This document shows, one piece after another, positions 1 through 27,438 of a DNA stretch of 32,000 nucleotides. The DNA is taken from contig JAIPHU010000003.1 of the NCBI GenBank assembly GCA_021735045.1, positions 42,476-74,475 on the forward strand, in the 5' to 3' direction. Below the pieces are notes generated by a model. That model was not told the origin of the DNA. It searched no databases and worked only from the letters and a program-made list of their open reading frames with translations. Each line of letters opens with the position of its first letter. The stretch's first letter is position 1. The position numbers and the translations under genes were made by a program. The stretch comes from Candidatus Omnitrophota bacterium (lineage in GTDB: Bacteria > Omnitrophota > Gorgyraeia > Duberdicusellales > 4484-171).

Positions 1-339
1 CAGGTGCCCAAGCAAGCGTGAATCCATGTAATTAAGTGCTTTGCCATTGGAGAAATTGAAAATTACTCTAGCCCGTTCTTGGCTTTCTCCATAATGAAGC
101 CAGCCGGTCATTCTTAAATGAATTACTAAAAATTTTTCTTTTTTTAATTTAAGAATCAAAAGCTTGCCCCGCCTGATCACCTTTTCAACTTCTTGACCAA
201 TAATTTCTTTTTTAAATTGGGGCCAGGATGGTTCTTTTATCACTTCAACTCTGTTAATTTTTACTGCAGTAATTTCTTCCCCGAGAACATTTTCGGCTAA
301 TTCTCTTTTGATTGTCTCGACTTCTGGTAATTCTGGCAT
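1..339 (-). CDS. mutM: formamidopyrimidine-DNA glycosylase (Fpg/MutM), N-terminal 113 codons; continues beyond the window edge
   Basis: Absent from the ORF track because it is open at the edge. My reverse-strand translation from the ATG (337-339) reads MPELPEVETIKRELAENVLGEEITAVKINRVEV...FLVIHLRMTGWLHYGE...YMDSRLLGHL. The PELPEVE N-terminus and HLxMTG are Fpg hallmarks. AAGGA lies 9 nt upstream. Confidence 0.85.
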   Translation of the reverse strand, partial: MPELPEVETIKRELAENVLGEEITAVKINRVEVIKEPSWPQFKKEIIGQEVEKVIRRGKLLILKLKKEKFLVIHLRMTGWLHYGESQERARVIFNFSNGKALNYMDSRLLGHL

Positions 340-472
340 AGCTTTTTATCCTTTATTTTATTCTTTGTATCAAATTATTTTCTTTTTTATATAGATAACG
401 TCGGATCCAATATTATTATTGATTAAGTTTTGCTTCGCAAAAATTGGATGCGACTTCTGGTAATTCTGGCAT
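318..472 (-). repeat. 22-bp perfect direct repeat (318-339 = 451-472; first 22 nt of mutM) bracketing a 111-bp structured non-coding insert (340-450)
   Basis: CGACTTCTGGTAATTCTGGCAT occurs twice on the plus strand, 133 bp apart. The insert folds (minus strand) into the stem 454-443/411-400 with one C:C mismatch, plus the hairpin TTTTGC-GAA-GCAAAA (442-428). The upstream copy keeps an RBS (GGAGAG) and ATG but runs into a stop after 18 codons. Confidence 0.85.
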
Positions 473-500
473 TATACTCTCCAGGTTAACTCAATTTATT

Positions 501-584
501 ATCAACGAATATACGAATCAATTACGAATTTACAAATAGAAATAAATATTCGTATATTCGTAGGAGATTGGTAAATTCGTTGAT
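501..584 (-). repeat. 84-bp repeat element, copy A (promoter-like cassette with six ACGAAT/ATTCGT hexamers); partner at 26373-26459 in inverted orientation
   Basis: The reverse complement aligns by eye to 26373-26459 at roughly 90 percent identity; the promoter-proximal 37 nt are identical. Minus-strand -35 TTGTAA (535-530), 16-nt spacer, -10 TATATT (513-508). Terminal inverted decamers ATCAACGAAT / ATTCGTTGAT. Confidence 0.8.
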
Positions 585-15005: not shown

Positions 15006-16340
15006 TTATAAGTTTTTAATTTCCTGTGCAAGGCTGTTAACTGTTGTTTTTAACTTCTCATCTTTAGTTAAAGCCTTTCTTATTTTTTTACAAGCATAAA
15101 GAATATTAGTGTGATGTTTACCCCCAAAAAAACCCCCAATTTCAGGGAGAGAACTCTCGGTCAACTCTCTTGTTAAATACATTGCAACCTGACGAGGCAA
15201 GACCAAAGTTTTACTTCTTTTAGCTTTTTTTAAATCTTCCTTGTCAACTCCATAAAAACAACTAACTTTATCCAAAATAATTTCCGGAGTAACTCTTGCG
15301 CTGATTTCGCGAACCATATCTTTTAAGATTCCTTTAGCTAGATCAACAGTGATTGTTTTATTTTCTATTAAGGAATAAGCTATAATTCTAACTAAAGCCC
15401 CCTCTAGTTCGCGGATATTTGAAGAGATATTTTCAGCAATAAAGCGGATAACTTGGGGGTCAACCTTTACTGCTTCGTTTTCTAGTTTTTTCTCTAAAAT
15501 TGCGACTCTGGTTTCATAATCCGGAGTTTGGATGTCAACAACCAAGCCCCAGTTAAAGCGGGAAACCAATCTTTCTTCTAAATCTGGAATTTCTTTCGGG
15601 GGGCGATCCGAAGAGACAACGATTTGTTTATGGTGGTCGTATAAGACATTAAACGTATGAAAAAACTCTTCCTGGGAAGCCTCTTTCCCCGAAAGAAATT
15701 GGATATCATCGATTAAAAGAATATCTATGTCTCGATATTTTTTTCTAAACTTATCCGTGTTTCTTTGCCGAATAGAAAGAATAAGGTCGTTAGCGAAGCT
15801 TTCTGAAGAAATATACTTAACTTTTGTTTGTGGGTTTAAAGAAAGCACATAATTAGAAATTGCTTGCATCAGGTGAGTTTTACCTAAACCAACTCCTCCA
15901 TATATAAAGATCGGGTTGTACGACTTTCCTGGGGCTCGGGCAACAGCTAAAGATGCAGCATGCGCCATTCGGTTTGAAGAGCCAACTACGAAATTATCAA
16001 AAGTAAAGCGGGGGTTGAGCCGCAAGGATGTTTGGGTTTTTTCTCCAAAGCTTTTATTAAAAGAACGAAAGATTTTTGTAGTTTTACTTTTAAGGATACC
16101 AGGATTTACCCGGAACTCTATATTTATTTTCTTTCCCTCAACTTCTTGGGAAATCTCTTCTATAGAAGAAAGATAGTTGCTTTCTACCCAGTTTTTAAAA
16201 AAACTGTCAGGAGCCTCTAAAACCAGATTTCCTTTAGAAGCTTCTTTGAGCTGTAAAGGAGATATCCAAGTATCAAAAGAAGTTTCTCCTAAACGTTCTT
16301 TAAGCTTTTTTTTACAATTTTCCCAAATATCTTGTTTCAT
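15006..16340 (-). CDS. dnaA: chromosomal replication initiator protein DnaA
   Basis: 444-aa ORF with Walker A GGVGLGKTHL, LLIDDIQFLSGKE and a C-terminal DNA-binding domain (...VAMYLTRELT...IGGFFGGKHHTNILYA). Confidence 0.95.
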   Translation of the reverse strand: MKQDIWENCKKKLKERLGETSFDTWISPLQLKEASKGNLVLEAPDSFFKNWVESNYLSSIEEISQEVEGKKINIEFRVNPGILKSKTTKIFRSFNKSFGEKTQTSLRLNPRFTFDNFVVGSSNRMAHAASLAVARAPGKSYNPIFIYGGVGLGKTHLMQAISNYVLSLNPQTKVKYISSESFANDLILSIRQRNTDKFRKKYRDIDILLIDDIQFLSGKEASQEEFFHTFNVLYDHHKQIVVSSDRPPKEIPDLEERLVSRFNWGLVVDIQTPDYETRVAILEKKLENEAVKVDPQVIRFIAENISSNIRELEGALVRIIAYSLIENKTITVDLAKGILKDMVREISARVTPEIILDKVSCFYGVDKEDLKKAKRSKTLVLPRQVAMYLTRELTESSLPEIGGFFGGKHHTNILYACKKIRKALTKDEKLKTTVNSLAQEIKNL

Positions 16341-16364
16341 TGACGATTTAACAAAGTTAACAAC

Positions 16365-16373
16365 TTATTCACA
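16365..16373 (+). promoter_or_regulatory. single DnaA-box-like 9-mer TTATTCACA (one mismatch to TTATCCACA) in the dnaA leader
   Basis: Read directly. It is the only close match I found in the dnaA-rpmH spacer. Confidence 0.35.
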
Positions 16374-16435
16374 TTTTTAAGGAATGATTATTTCCTGCGC
16401 GGTACCAGAAGTAACCTATTGATTTTGAATAACCA

Positions 16436-16463
16436 ATTATACCTCAATAAAATATCTTTGCAA
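16436..16463 (-). promoter_or_regulatory. sigma70-like promoter facing dnaA
   Basis: Minus strand: TTGCAA (16463-16458), 16 nt, TATAAT (16441-16436). Confidence 0.45.
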
Positions 16464-16474
16464 CTTTTTTGTAG

Positions 16475-16502
16475 TTGACACCTAATTATTTTATGCTACA
16501 AT
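16475..16502 (+). promoter_or_regulatory. sigma70-like promoter facing rpmH
   Basis: TTGACA (16475-16480), 16 nt, TACAAT (16497-16502). Divergent from the dnaA promoter. Confidence 0.5.
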
Positions 16503-16540
16503 TTCAACTTACCTGATAGTATATTGAATTTAAAAAAGGC

Positions 16541-16740
16541 GATGAGCTATATAAGTATAGTTAATTTTTGATAAAAAGATAACTAAAAGGTGCAAAATGT
16601 ATGCGTTTTTTGCCGCAGGCAAACATTCTCTAGCTATTGCCTAAGAGAATATAACGCATCCATGTAATGTATTAGACTCACAAACAGTGATGAGCTATAT
16701 AAGTATAGTTAATTTTTGATAAAAAGATAACTAAAAGGTG
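16541..16740 (+). repeat. 52-bp perfect direct repeat (16541-16592 = 16689-16740; rpmH leader including SD) bracketing a 96-bp structured insert (16593-16688)
   Basis: GATGAGCTATATAAGTATAGTTAATTTTTGATAAAAAGATAACTAAAAGGTG occurs twice, 148 bp apart. The insert folds into the stem 16597-16607/16653-16663 with one T:C mismatch, hairpin TTTGCC-GCA-GGCAAA (16609-16623) and hairpin 16625-16650. Confidence 0.85.
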
Positions 16741-16747
16741 AAAAAAC

Positions 16748-16885
16748 ATGAAAAAAAATCTAAAAACACCTAGTAATTTAAAAGGGAAAAGAAAACACGG
16801 TTTTCGTAAGAGGATGAGCTCGAAAAACGGGAAAAAAATAGTAAATCAACGGCGAAGAAAAGGGCGTAAAAAAATATCTGTATGA
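16748..16885 (+). CDS. rpmH: 50S ribosomal protein L34
   Basis: Below the ORF-track size cutoff. My translation is [45 protein letters not shown] (45 aa). The HGFRKRM..GR motif is L34-specific. Overlaps yidD in ATGA. Confidence 0.9.
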
Positions 16886-18584: not shown

Positions 18585-18602
18585 CGTTTTCACGTGAAAA
18601 CG
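18585..18602. promoter_or_regulatory. parS-like site 1 (perfect 18-bp palindrome CGTTTTCACGTGAAAACG)
   Basis: The central 12 nt TTTCACGTGAAA are identical to the canonical parS TGTTTCACGTGAAACA. Lies upstream of parAB. Confidence 0.65.
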
Positions 18603-18714
18603 CTGCAACCCCTTGATTCTATTAACATTTTCTATTTTTACGTGTATCTTTCCAGCTATTAAAGAGGGCTGAAAGATCCATGTGGGAACCTCTACACAAC
18701 TAGAAAGAAGGAGG

Positions 18715-18730
18715 CGTTTTCACGTGAAAA
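18715..18730. promoter_or_regulatory. parS-like site 2 (CGTTTTCACGTGAAAA)
   Basis: Same core, TTTCACGTGAAA. Confidence 0.6.
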
Positions 18731-18796
18731 TTTTCTTGCTTCTAGATATATGAAAATTTCCACGTGGATATTCTCCTTTTCTTTAGGTGGTGGAGA

Positions 18797-18813
18797 ATAT
18801 ACACGTGAAAACG
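18797..18813. promoter_or_regulatory. parS-like half-conserved site 3 (ATATACACGTGAAAACG)
   Basis: The right half is identical to site 1 and the left half is degenerate. It is part of a 37-bp repeat (18591-18627 vs 18802-18838). Confidence 0.45.
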
Positions 18814-18956
18814 CTAGAACCCCTTGATTTTATTAACAATTCTCATTTTGGTTGTTATTTTTTTTGAGTAATTAAATAAAAATGGTTGCAATTCTCATCA
18901 AATAGTATTAAAATAAAGAAAATTGAAATATTTATATATTATTGATAACAAAAGAT

Positions 18957-22871: not shown

Positions 22872-22901
22872 TGCATAGCGCAAAGCGCTTAGCGCTATGC
22901 A
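22872..22901 (+). terminator. 30-nt near-perfect palindrome TGCATAGCGC-A-AAGCGCTT-A-GCGCTATGCA after tRNA-Cys
   Basis: Read directly. It shares its 5' arm TGCATAGCGC with the hairpin at 23167-23189. Confidence 0.4.
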
Positions 22902-22930
22902 CTATGCTCTAAGTTAATAGGTCAAAAGTA

Positions 22931-23087
22931 AAACTTATTGCCGGGGTGTTGGCAAGAACTTCTTGCCGAAGGCAAGCTAGTTTGCTTATACGTGTACAGT
23001 TCTTCCCAAAGATTTTGGAGATAAAACAAAACTATTGCTAATTTGAAAACTAATAAATTAAGGATAAACTTATTGCCGGGGTGTTGG
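22931..23087 (+). repeat. 22-bp perfect direct repeat (22931-22952 = 23066-23087; 9 nt of leader plus first 13 nt of tRNA-Leu) bracketing a 113-bp structured insert (22953-23065)
   Basis: AAACTTATTGCCGGGGTGTTGG occurs twice, 135 bp apart. The insert folds into the stem 22949-22960/22998-23009 with one C:C mismatch and the hairpin CTTGCC-GAA-GGCAAG (22962-22976). Confidence 0.85.
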
Positions 23088-23160
23088 AATTGGCAGACAA
23101 CTCGGACTTAAAATCCGGTGTTCCGAAAGGGACGTGCGGGTTCAAGTCCCGCCCCCGGCA
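23075..23160 (+). tRNA. tRNA-Leu (anticodon UAA), class II with long variable arm
   Basis: Acceptor GCCGGGG/CCCCGGC, anticodon loop CTTAAAA, variable arm GTTCCGAAAGGGAC, T arm GCGGG-TTCAAGT-CCCGC, discriminator A. Confidence 0.9.
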
Positions 23161-23166
23161 TATTTT

Positions 23167-23189
23167 TGCATAGCGCTAGGCGCTAAGCA
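23167..23189 (+). terminator. hairpin TGCATAGCGC-tag-GCGCTAAGCA after tRNA-Leu, with a T-run 7 nt downstream
   Basis: Read directly. Confidence 0.4.
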
Positions 23190-26372: not shown

Positions 26373-26459
26373 ATCAACGAATTTACTAATCTCTACGAAT
26401 ATACGAACATTTGTTTTTTCTTATTTGTAAATTCGTAATTGATTCGTATATTCGTTGAT
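26373..26459 (+). repeat. 87-bp repeat element, copy B (promoter-like cassette upstream of accA)
   Basis: Inverted copy of 501-584. -35 TTGTAA (26425-26430), 16 nt, -10 TATATT (26447-26452). Three ACGAA(T/C) hexamers lie upstream and three ATTCGT hexamers overlap the core promoter. Confidence 0.8.
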
Positions 26460-26487
26460 CATAAGCAAAGCTAACCAGGAGAGCACG

Positions 26488-27438
26488 ATGCAGGGTTGGG
26501 ATTTTGAAAAACCAATAATTGAACTGGAACAGAAAATAGGAGAGTTAAGGAGTTTTTCTACAGATGAAAAAGTAGAAATGTCTTCGGAAATTAAAAACTT
26601 AGAAAATAAGTTAAAAAGTTTAAAAAAAGAAATTTACTCAAACCTTACTCCTTGGCAGAAAGTGCAAATCTCTCGCCATCCCAAACGTCCTACTACCTTA
26701 GATTATTTAAAAAGTATAGCTGAGGACTATGTTCTTTTGTCCGGTGATAGAGGTTTTGGTGAAGATCAGGCTTTAGTTTGTGGTTTTGCCACTATAGAAG
26801 GAAAAAAAATTGCTTTTGCTGGACATCAAAAGGGTAAAGACACTCATGAAAATATAAGACGCAATTTTGGTTGTGCCCATCCAGAAGGTTATCGAAAAGC
26901 GATGCGAATTATGAATCTAGCCGAACGCTTTGGGCTACCCATTGTTTGTTTTATTGATACACCAGGGGCATATCCAGGGATTGGAGCTGAAGAAAGAGGA
27001 CAGGCCCAGGCTATAGCAGAAAATATCAGAGATATGTTTAACATAAAAACGCCAATTGTAGTTACAGTAATTGGTGAAGGAGGAAGTGGCGGGGCCTTAG
27101 GGATAGGCGTTGGAGACAGAGTTCTGATTAGCCAATATGGATATTATTCGGTGATATCTCCTGAAGGTTGTGCTGCTATTCTTTGGAAAGATGCAGCTAA
27201 GCGGGAAGAAGCAGCTAAAGTATTAAAACTAACAGCTCCTGAACTTATGAAATTAGAAATTGTTGATCAAGTTATTCCGGAATCAGAAGGAGGGGCCCAT
27301 TGGGATCTAAACAAATCAGCGCAAAATCTTAAAAAGGCCTTATTAGAAAACCTTTTACAGCTAGAAGGATCAAGTCTTGACCAACTGCTAGAGAAAAGAT
27401 ACCAACGTTTTAGAAAGATTGGGAAATTCATCGAATAA
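26488..27438 (+). CDS. accA: acetyl-CoA carboxylase carboxyltransferase subunit alpha
   Basis: ...RHPKRPTTLDY...FIDTPGAYPGIGAEERGQ...GEGGSGGALG. I prefer the ATG at 26488 (GGAGAG SD 5 nt upstream) over the track's TTG at 26455, which lies inside the repeat element. Confidence 0.9.
   Translation: MQGWDFEKPIIELEQKIGELRSFSTDEKVEMSSEIKNLENKLKSLKKEIYSNLTPWQKVQISRHPKRPTTLDYLKSIAEDYVLLSGDRGFGEDQALVCGFATIEGKKIAFAGHQKGKDTHENIRRNFGCAHPEGYRKAMRIMNLAERFGLPIVCFIDTPGAYPGIGAEERGQAQAIAENIRDMFNIKTPIVVTVIGEGGSGGALGIGVGDRVLISQYGYYSVISPEGCAAILWKDAAKREEAAKVLKLTAPELMKLEIVDQVIPESEGGAHWDLNKSAQNLKKALLENLLQLEGSSLDQLLEKRYQRFRKIGKFIE

Follow-up and report, generated by a model that had tools for sequence, protein, structure and literature searches.

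Hairpin Modules Between Duplicated Gene Starts at mutM, tRNA-Leu and rpmH in the Origin Region of a Candidatus Omnitrophota Genome

Introduction

Insertion accompanied by a long target duplication is a recognised class of event whose mechanism is unexplained and in which the DNA gained is much larger (Nobusato/Furuta/Kobayashi; PMC2853133) than the insert considered here. This report concerns the 5′ end of the DNA repair gene mutM (fpg) in a 32,000-nt stretch, hereafter the window, of a Candidatus Omnitrophota metagenome-assembled genome (MAG; GenBank assembly GCA_021735045.1, contig JAIPHU010000003.1, positions 42,476 to 74,475 of the forward strand), where the first bases of the gene are present twice around a short hairpin-bearing insert. 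A first-pass annotation of the same letters had described an insertion neutralised by the duplication that flanks it. That account is tenable for the insertion and its duplication, and falls short where it implies a private accident, as the module recurs in a second species and at tRNA-Leu and rpmH. The comparisons below, drawn from three loci and two species, reveal conserved hairpin modules that form a small family and that each accompany a doubled gene start.

With the long-target-duplication class the modules share flanking repeats that are locus-specific, single-copy in the empty site and of long, variable length, and an insert without a mobility gene. They differ in scale and content, the class consisting of kilobase restriction-modification units between repeats of more than 30 bp and the modules of a 55–113-nt non-coding hairpin at gene 5′ ends. 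[quoted passage not shown] A few bases that adjoin the hairpin are paired to the flanking target in IS608 (PMC3201880), hairpin-adjacent bases likewise pair with the flank in HUH-dependent elements (PMC3201880, PMC6006769), and IS200/IS605-type insertion takes place into the lagging-strand template (PMC5027513).

Results

A Doubled mutM Start Around a Hairpin

The first 22 nt of mutM (ATGCCAGAATTACCAGAAGTCG) occur exactly twice in the window, both times on the minus strand, at 472–451 and 339–318 (133 nt apart), as the first-pass annotation had reported. No third copy is present in the window even at three mismatches, and none of 100 shuffled sequences matched the duplication with three mismatches allowed. 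Between the copies lie 111 nt (340–450), of which the window holds no second copy.

The downstream copy, preceded by AAGGATAAAAAGCT, opens the functional gene, again in line with the earlier reading. The open reading frame (ORF) from ATG 339, which reaches past the window edge, matches the Pfam family Fapy_DNA_glyco from residue 1 (E 8.5e-32), its start (MPELPEVETIKREL...) aligning at profile position 1, and a full domain with such a start is available only from this ATG. Fpg begins with Met-Pro-Glu, and the N-terminal proline is the catalytic nucleophile; only the ATG at 339 can therefore yield an active enzyme. The full-length protein is MCF7873477.1 (P0212).

The upstream copy is preceded by GGAGAGTATA and joined at its other end to CATCCAAT. 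Its ATG had been called a non-productive decoy, and the sequence agrees: the 18-codon ORF runs into the hairpin, and both of its in-frame stops fall in the hairpin loop. The hairpin consists of GTCG (the last decoy bases), a C:C mismatch, ATCCAAT, an inner TTTTGC-GAA-GCAAAA stem-loop, a 16-nt unpaired stretch, ATTGGAT, C and CGAC, with arms at 400–414 and 440–454 and ATCCAAT pairing with ATTGGAT. Folding reproduced the proposed 4 bp + C:C + 7 bp (−14.5 kcal/mol, z = −3.05; 1 of 200 shuffles folded equally well).

A Logan contig assembled from SRR12088346 (L098) reproduces the last 93 nt of the insert and its junction with the mutM start; it ends short of the upstream copy, and the upstream junction in this genome rests on one assembly. 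Among 84 unrelated fpg loci, none carries the exact 22-mer and none has a second start. Local origins for the surrounding sequence were considered and rejected: the hairpin as a decayed copy of mutM codons 8–25, to which it has no significant similarity, and the sequence 5′ of the decoy as a decayed copy of the A-rich tail that follows the hairpin, no similarity being found at mutM, at tRNA-Leu or at the mutM locus L088 of the second species described below (p = 0.49–0.72).

Two Further Loci and a Common Hairpin Plan

Only five strong families of close direct repeats occur in the window, and two of them, besides that of mutM, lie at gene starts. Before tRNA-Leu, two exact 22-mers stand 135 nt apart with 113 nt between them, in a module that has no ORF role. 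Before rpmH the repeat is longer and imperfect, its copies lie 148 nt apart with the hairpin exactly between them and no separate tail, and a decoy ATG (16597–16599) overlaps the last base of the upstream copy and runs into the hairpin. At all three modules it is the downstream copy that forms the functional gene start, and the order is the same throughout: decoy 5′ end, hairpin of 55–70 nt, A-rich upstream region, intact gene (Table 1). The tails at mutM and tRNA-Leu are not significantly similar to each other (p = 0.17).

The hairpins follow one plan, with three to four outer pairs that involve the last decoy bases, a pyrimidine:C mismatch, a 7-bp stem whose sequence differs from locus to locus, and innermost a C-GNA-G triloop on a stem of 6 bp. 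At tRNA-Leu this is realised as TTGG, a C:C mismatch, AAGAACT, an inner CTTGCC-GAA-GGCAAG, AGTTCTT (pairing with AAGAACT), C and CCAA; at rpmH as AATG, a T:C mismatch, ATGCGTT, an inner TTTGCC-GCA-GGCAAA, an extra internal stem, AACGCAT, C and CATG. A junction G-Y-A ... T-C-C is conserved; beyond it, three bases in every case reverse-complement sequence particular to the locus, giving the outer pairs GTCG/CGAC, GTTG/CAAC (second species), TTGG/CCAA and (A)ATG/CATG. When the five distinct sequences are compared, the 17 pairs are intact in 98.8% of cells and both partners vary in 11 of them; 0 of 500 shuffles reached the observed pairing and covariation, and slid controls gave 27–45% pairing.

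A covariance model (R1) built only from the mutM and tRNA-Leu hairpins matched the rpmH hairpin at 16596–16668 (23.7 bits, E 0.02), and the refined model has exactly three matches in the window. In related loci it recovers the mutM copies plus one weak hit (21–23 bits) at 352–405 of L081, a distant relative, between pyrB and pyrC. This hit has a CTGC-GAA-GCAG inner hairpin and follows a short ATG-initiated ORF loosely like the pyrC start; there is no clear repeat 5′ of pyrC, and the contig carries many frameshifts. It is possible that it represents a distant member of the family.

No Rfam family matched, either in a gathering-threshold scan of the whole window or in scans of the three loci at E<=5–10, which returned chance microRNA-type hits only. 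A terminator scan called none of the three hairpins a terminator, and the U content downstream of them is only moderate. The inner C-GNA-G triloop matches a motif of unusually stable DNA mini-hairpins (PMC13037366, PMC3201870), and GC skew and the position of dnaA imply that all three sense strands fall on the lagging-strand template, which single-strand transposons use (PMC5027513).

The Module at mutM of a Second Species

Related loci were found through YjbQ and Fpg homologues. A genome-collection search with the Fpg N-terminus was dominated by the universal MPELPEVE pattern and yielded distant fpg loci only; a metagenome scan with Fpg residues 9–113 was dominated by a low-complexity pattern and gave one distant locus.

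The architecture seen at mutM is present in four independent Joint Genome Institute (JGI) assemblies of a related species. In one of these (L088), ATGCCTGAGTTACCAGAAGTTG occurs three times, as two identical 129-nt units followed by the real mutM; in the others, which come from three other samples (L095, L096, L097) and are ∼95% identical to L088 over the locus, there is one unit. DNA identity between the window and L088 is 80% in dcd (63% at third codon positions), 82% in yjbQ and 69% in the first 339 nt of mutM, and the hairpin core is identical at 46/46 nt. At the stem base, GTCG/CGAC in the window corresponds to GTTG/CAAC in L088, a compensatory change of both partners. The two species differ at three synonymous positions of the mutM start, and in both the decoy follows the local start exactly. 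Both species come from the same NCBI MAG series, so that the module may have been exchanged between them recently.

A conserved leader peptide had been named as the outcome that would overturn the displaced-start reading, and the relatives give a divided answer. The decoy peptide is identical at 17 of 18 residues in L088 (MPELPEVVSNFCEAKLNQ); in L095–L097, T6 in place of T5 in the inner stem shifts the frame to MPELPEVVSNFLRSKT, so that the hairpin rather than the peptide is what is conserved. Neither a leader peptide nor a decoy start can be the general logic of these modules, because one of them precedes a tRNA gene.

Gene callers extend Fpg of the sister species falsely by 17 residues (283 vs. 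266 aa; L088 2127–2978, L095 3001–3852), because the upstream unit is open in frame from a TTG. One NCBI contig ends inside the unit (P0206, annotated as “partial”).

Relatives Without the Module and the Origin of the AAGGA Spacer

By protein identity the second species (L088/L095–97) forms a clade with L086, L089–91 and L092/93 (Dcd 87–98% identical), throughout which the order dcd, zinc-ribbon gene, yjbQ, mutM is conserved. The window genome lies outside this clade (Dcd 80–82%), and L094 and L082 are more distant still; L094 retains dcd, yjbQ and mutM, and in L082, which has no yjbQ, mutM directly follows the zinc-ribbon gene. No second mutM start, hairpin or palindromic upstream cassette was found in L086, L089–L091, L092/L093, L094 or L082. 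The mutM 22-mer is single in L086 and L089–L094, and double or triple in the window, L088 and L095–L097.

Between the yjbQ stop and the mutM ATG, L086 has AATAAAGGATAAAAATT, and in L092/L093 a yjbQ-mutM spacer of 51–58 nt ends in AAAATAAAACAAAGGATAAAAATT-ATG. Different short spacers occupy the site in L089–91 and L094, that of L089 (4403–4467) being distinct, 65 nt long and marked by a 10-bp hairpin (AAGGATTATG...CATAATCCTT); turnover at this intergenic site is recurrent. The L092/L093 spacer can be aligned with the last 40–45 nt of the window insert, at 81.5% over 65 nt when the 22-mer is counted in (p = 0.002). Because it is homologous to the spacer of hairpin-free relatives, the AAGGA region before the real ATG is ancestral-like and not evidently foreign. 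At the level of sequence, this homology reverses the polarity proposed in the first-pass annotation, in which AAGGA was borne by the insert and the original promoter and Shine-Dalgarno sequence stood upstream. Comparison with the mutM loci of relatives upholds the duplication, which the sister species shares, and not the polarity assigned to promoter and Shine-Dalgarno sequence.

The Cassette Upstream of the Decoy

A long imperfect palindrome fills the stretch from yjbQ to the decoy ATG; it contains the hexamers ACGAAT and ATTCGT three times each as well as promoter-like hexamers, and its tail (AGTTAACCTGGAGAGTATA) holds a GGAG Shine-Dalgarno sequence. It had been taken for the original mutM promoter. 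It is absent from the single-start, hairpin-free relatives and so is not the ancestral promoter, and as a second copy precedes accA it is better described as a repeated intergenic element. No target duplication was found around the ACGAAT cassette. Loss of the unit at mutM would read as the cassette joined directly to ATG...GTCGAGACA. In L088 the corresponding region is only 61% alignable to the window, with the 3+3 hexamer layout and the tail (AGTTAAYCTGGAGRG) kept; this diverged counterpart at the sister-species mutM has GACGAA/TCGTC hexamers.

The cassette resembles Correia- and ERIC-like sequences in being a long imperfect palindrome with promoter-like hexamers and a Shine-Dalgarno sequence that stands before unrelated genes, a likeness that concerns this neighbouring cassette and not the hairpin element. 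AGTTAA occurs exactly 19 nt 5′ of the upstream repeat at mutM (486–491, minus strand), at tRNA-Leu (22912–22917, plus strand) and in L088 (1901–1906), and AGCTAA (26469–26474, plus strand) lies 19 nt 5′ of the accA ATG; possibly these mark a −10-like element or a conserved cassette end.

Features and Genomic Setting

TABLE 1. Coordinates of the three modules and of the palindromic cassettes within the window.
Feature	Position	Strand	Basis or remark
5′ part of mutM (Fpg residues 1–113)	1..339	-	gene runs past window edge
mutM, downstream 22-mer copy (true mutM/fpg start)	318..339	-	exact repeat; Pfam match
mutM, A-rich tail with AAGGA 9 nt 5′ of real ATG	340..399	-	homologous to yjbQ-mutM spacer of hairpin-free relatives
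mutM, hairpin	400..454	-	fold; 46-nt core same in L088; covariation; covariance-model hits
mutM, decoy ORF, 18 codons plus TAA (MPELPEVASNFCEAKLNQ, then stop)	416..472	-	second in-frame TAA at 413–415
mutM, upstream (decoy) copy of first 22 nt	451..472	-	final 4 nt GTCG (451–454) form the outer hairpin pairs
Repeated palindromic cassette, flush with decoy ATG	473..584	-	3+3 ACGAAT/ATTCGT hexamers at 501–584
rpmH, upstream copy of 81-nt 5′ region	16517..16597	+	86% identical to downstream copy, 52 nt perfect
rpmH, hairpin	16596..16664	+	model R1; fold z = −3.34; pair counts
rpmH, downstream copy of 5′ region, directly before rpmH (16748–16885)	16665..16745	+	repeat
tRNA-Leu, upstream 22-mer (AAACTTATTGCCGGGGTGTTGG)	22931..22952	+	direct-repeat search
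tRNA-Leu, hairpin	22949..23009	+	fold and covariance-model hits
tRNA-Leu, A-rich tail, 56 nt, ending AAGGAT	23010..23065	+	sequence
tRNA-Leu, downstream 22-mer (8 leader nt plus first 14 nt of tRNA-Leu, 23074–23161)	23066..23087	+	repeat
Second cassette copy, ∼89% identical, ∼115 nt	26373..26487	+	flush with accA ATG at 26488

The window covers the chromosomal origin region of the MAG. The minus strand carries gyrA, gyrB, dnaN and dnaA; the plus strand carries rpmH, a yidD-like ORF (named by its N-terminal sequence), yidC, parA and parB. Near 16.4 kb both gene direction and GC skew switch. The dnaA-rpmH intergenic region (∼16340–16750), at the GC-skew switch, probably contains oriC, and a near-consensus promoter, TTGACA-16-TACAAT, lies at 16475–16502, just 5′ of the duplicated rpmH 5′ region. 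The genes 5′ of mutM are yjbQ (596–988), a 78-residue zinc-ribbon gene, dcd and a SLOG-family gene.

Two other sets of repeats were observed. Between yidC and parA (18585–18849) the palindrome CGTTTTCACGTGAAAA(CG) occurs three times, two of the three within 48-nt direct repeats, and resembles the parS consensus (TGTTNCACGTGAAACA). G+C-rich hairpins (GCATAGCGC...GCGCTATGC) at 22874–22901 and 23169–23189, repeated in the spacers of the tRNA-Cys/Leu/Val/Asp cluster, look like a separate small repeat family.

Discussion

Proposed Insertion of a Small Hairpin Element With Target Duplication

Our leading explanation, for and against which we find the case about evenly balanced, is that small hairpin elements of one family have inserted into the 5′ ends of genes and duplicated their targets. 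Insertion with target duplication is suggested because locus-specific repeats flank a structured insert that is patchy among relatives and varies in unit number. That mutM is one of at least three such sites in this bacterium points to an undescribed small repeat element and not to a one-off accident. On this explanation the hairpin element would have entered the 5′ end of each gene and duplicated its target, 22 nt at two loci and ∼60–81 nt at rpmH; the duplication would have restored a whole gene on the downstream side, the upstream copy being dead. The mutM gene keeps an AAGGA spacer resembling that of relatives and the dead copy abuts the palindromic, promoter- and Shine-Dalgarno-like cassette, and unequal exchange between the repeats would then alter the number of units, one or two in the sister species. 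Fpg would be made from ATG 339 using AAGGA, with the decoy ORF as a by-product; ribosomes or transcripts arriving from upstream would meet the decoy start and a stable hairpin, which would insulate or attenuate upstream transcription, and unit number would modulate expression.

The conserved C-GNA-G triloop and the placement of the sense strands on the lagging-strand template point to a structure that may act as single-stranded DNA, by analogy with REP, IS200/IS605-derived or other HUH-dependent elements. It is not readily placed among them. Unlike those of MITEs, the two ends of the insert (CATCCAATTT... and ...GGATAAAAAGCT) do not form an inverted pair, the inverted repeat being internal (400–454), and repeats of 22, 22 and 81 nt contrast with MITE duplications of 2–10 bp. 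IS200/IS605 elements make no target duplication, whereas direct repeats are present here, and their insertion sites lie 3′ of a tetra- or pentanucleotide that is conserved, whereas the four bases preceding the hairpin are GTCG, GTTG, TTGG and AATG. No RAYT or TnpA (Y1 HUH) gene was found in the window. Integron attC sites differ in having RYYYAAC ... GTTRRRY boxes, which are absent, the hairpin base here being G-Y-A ... T-C-C with variable outer triplets. Because each of these families fails on at least one defining feature, we set the hairpin element apart from them.

What exactly was inserted can be framed in two ways, each of which fits part of the facts. If the element comprises hairpin and tail with a 22-bp duplication (version A), the equal 22/22 repeats, the inserts of 111 and 113 nt and the cassette that abuts the decoy as it abuts accA are all accounted for, and the hairpin-free relatives must have lost cassette, decoy and hairpin yet kept the tail. 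If the element is the hairpin alone with a 60–80-nt duplication (version B), rpmH and the tail homology are accounted for, and at two loci cassettes must have replaced all but exactly 22 nt of the upstream copy. Measured against the duplication of more than 30 bp that characterises the long-target-duplication class (PMC2853133), rpmH with 81 nt lies above, and mutM and tRNA-Leu with 22 nt lie below unless the tail is counted. A boundary of the repeat set by the transcription start was also considered; it fits loosely at mutM and tRNA-Leu, fails at rpmH, and was dropped.

Several points weigh against insertion of such an element. The family is documented by three loci in two species, with element orientation confounded with gene direction, and tandem copy number in short-read assemblies can be wrong. 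Genes for a transposase, an integrase or a reverse transcriptase are absent from the window, an autonomous partner is not known, and the element has no terminal inverted repeats. The homology of the mutM tail to a native spacer blurs what was inserted, neither version explaining everything, and a core identical at 46/46 nt in species with flanking genes at 69–82% identity fits purifying selection or recent exchange better than neutral selfish DNA.

Alternative Explanations

These last figures lead to the strongest alternative, to which we assign a minor though real share of the probability: a selected cis-acting module that is not currently mobile, such as a conserved leader that terminates, processes or insulates incoming transcripts, or a short sense RNA, with the decoy kept equal to the gene start by conversion or unequal exchange. 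It overlaps with element insertion if an inserted element was domesticated. The unchanged core despite 63% third-position identity, the compensatory C-G to T-A change at the stem base, a decoy that equals the local gene start in both species despite three synonymous differences, an element orientation that is always that of the gene, and the moderately U-rich sequence after each hairpin all speak for it. Yet there is no Rfam family, 0 of 3 hairpins were called terminators, the three genes have no obvious common regulatory need, and close relatives manage without the module; moreover, the 7-bp stems are wholly different among the paralogues and the GNA triloop is a stability motif of the DNA type. 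Nor does a familiar regulatory device fit. Like the erm- and trp-type upstream-ORF attenuators, mutM has a short ORF with a strong Shine-Dalgarno sequence that reads into a hairpin before a gene, but the peptide tail is frameshifted in the sister strains and a tRNA gene is preceded by the same module. At the locus no alternative pairing was seen by which the real mutM Shine-Dalgarno sequence could be sequestered, and the terminator scan called none of the three hairpins an intrinsic terminator, a structure with a G+C-rich stem, a short loop and a U tract.

We think it rather unlikely that the first-pass annotation holds literally, with a single foreign 111-bp insert in mutM codon 8, a 22-bp target-site duplication, a new Shine-Dalgarno sequence from the insert and the original promoter and Shine-Dalgarno sequence upstream. 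Exact 22-nt repeats do directly flank 111 nt, tRNA-Leu has likewise a 22-nt repeat and a 113-nt insert ending in AAGGAT, and the cassette runs up exactly to the decoy ATG, just as its other copy runs up to the true ATG of accA. Set against this, relatives without hairpin, decoy or cassette have a spacer homologous to the 3′ 40–45 nt of the insert, the rpmH repeat is 81 nt long without a separate tail, and the mutM and tRNA-Leu tails are not significantly similar.

Mobile DNA at the 5′ end of a repair gene has a precedent in SpyCIM1, a 13-kb, integrase-bearing island that excises reversibly from the 5′ end of mutL in Streptococcus pyogenes and is flanked by duplicated attachment (att) sites. 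Both cases involve mobile DNA at the 5′ end of a mismatch or oxidative-damage repair gene, which it parts from upstream transcription. The likeness, the direct repeats around foreign-looking DNA and the tandem units in L088 would suit an origin of the repeats as attL/attR cores of an integrative element that has since been mostly deleted. We hold this to be very improbable: the insert here is 111 nt, no integrase is encoded in the window, and neither scans of viral contigs nor BLAST searches of phage and plasmid records gave a match to the whole unit, its hairpin core, the insert or the cassette. A sequence-specific integrase is excluded because the three loci carry three unrelated repeat sequences.

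Least credible of all is an assembly artefact or a chance remnant of another fpg/nei gene, an idea that draws on the upstream junction coming from one assembly and on a phage gene that starts with the exact 22-mer, and that is opposed by four sister-species assemblies together with the downstream junction in the Logan contig, which make an artefact very unlikely, by the 0 of 84 fpg loci and by two paralogous modules in the window. The phage gene lies on a 77.6-kb viral contig (L084 344–1162; IMGVR_UViG_3300043775_001834) and encodes a full Fpg/Nei-family glycosylase of 272 aa; its first 22 nt are identical to the window mutM start and the remainder is unrelated, and the identity reaches 23 nt if the next C, common to the upstream copy only, is counted. 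The remnant of a second fpg/nei gene that it suggested was rejected, the decoy tracking the synonymous sites of the local gene in two species. Chance convergence on MPELPEV codons, which the phage gene makes conceivable in principle, is opposed by the 84 fpg loci and by this tracking.

Implications

A more far-reaching proposal, which we offer as a long shot, is an undescribed class of single-strand hairpin element with a C-GNA-G core and three to four locus-specific closing pairs, which would enter within the first few to about two dozen transcribed bases, directly after the duplicated segment (right after the ATG at rpmH, 22 nt into mutM), and copy the gene 5′ end, producing decoy starts; unit number at mutM could then tune expression of the repair enzyme and the mutation rate. 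In a bolder form of this proposal, decoy plus hairpin would be transcribed into a short RNA whose 5′ 18–22 nt equal the gene start and which might serve as a guide or mimic for some factor.

If the modules are only three local curiosities, they are still a useful correction of the first reading of the locus. If insertion of hairpin elements is the true explanation, it would account for mis-called gene starts such as the false Fpg extension in the sister species and for tandem decoy starts before core genes, and it would supply a tractable case of the unexplained insertion with long target duplication. The loss of mutM, a repair gene, raises G:C to T:A mutation, and a strain-variable unit lies between this gene and upstream transcription. 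Should the family prove real across the whole genome, it would represent a very small bacterial repeat of a new kind, one that survives in gene starts by duplicating what it interrupts.

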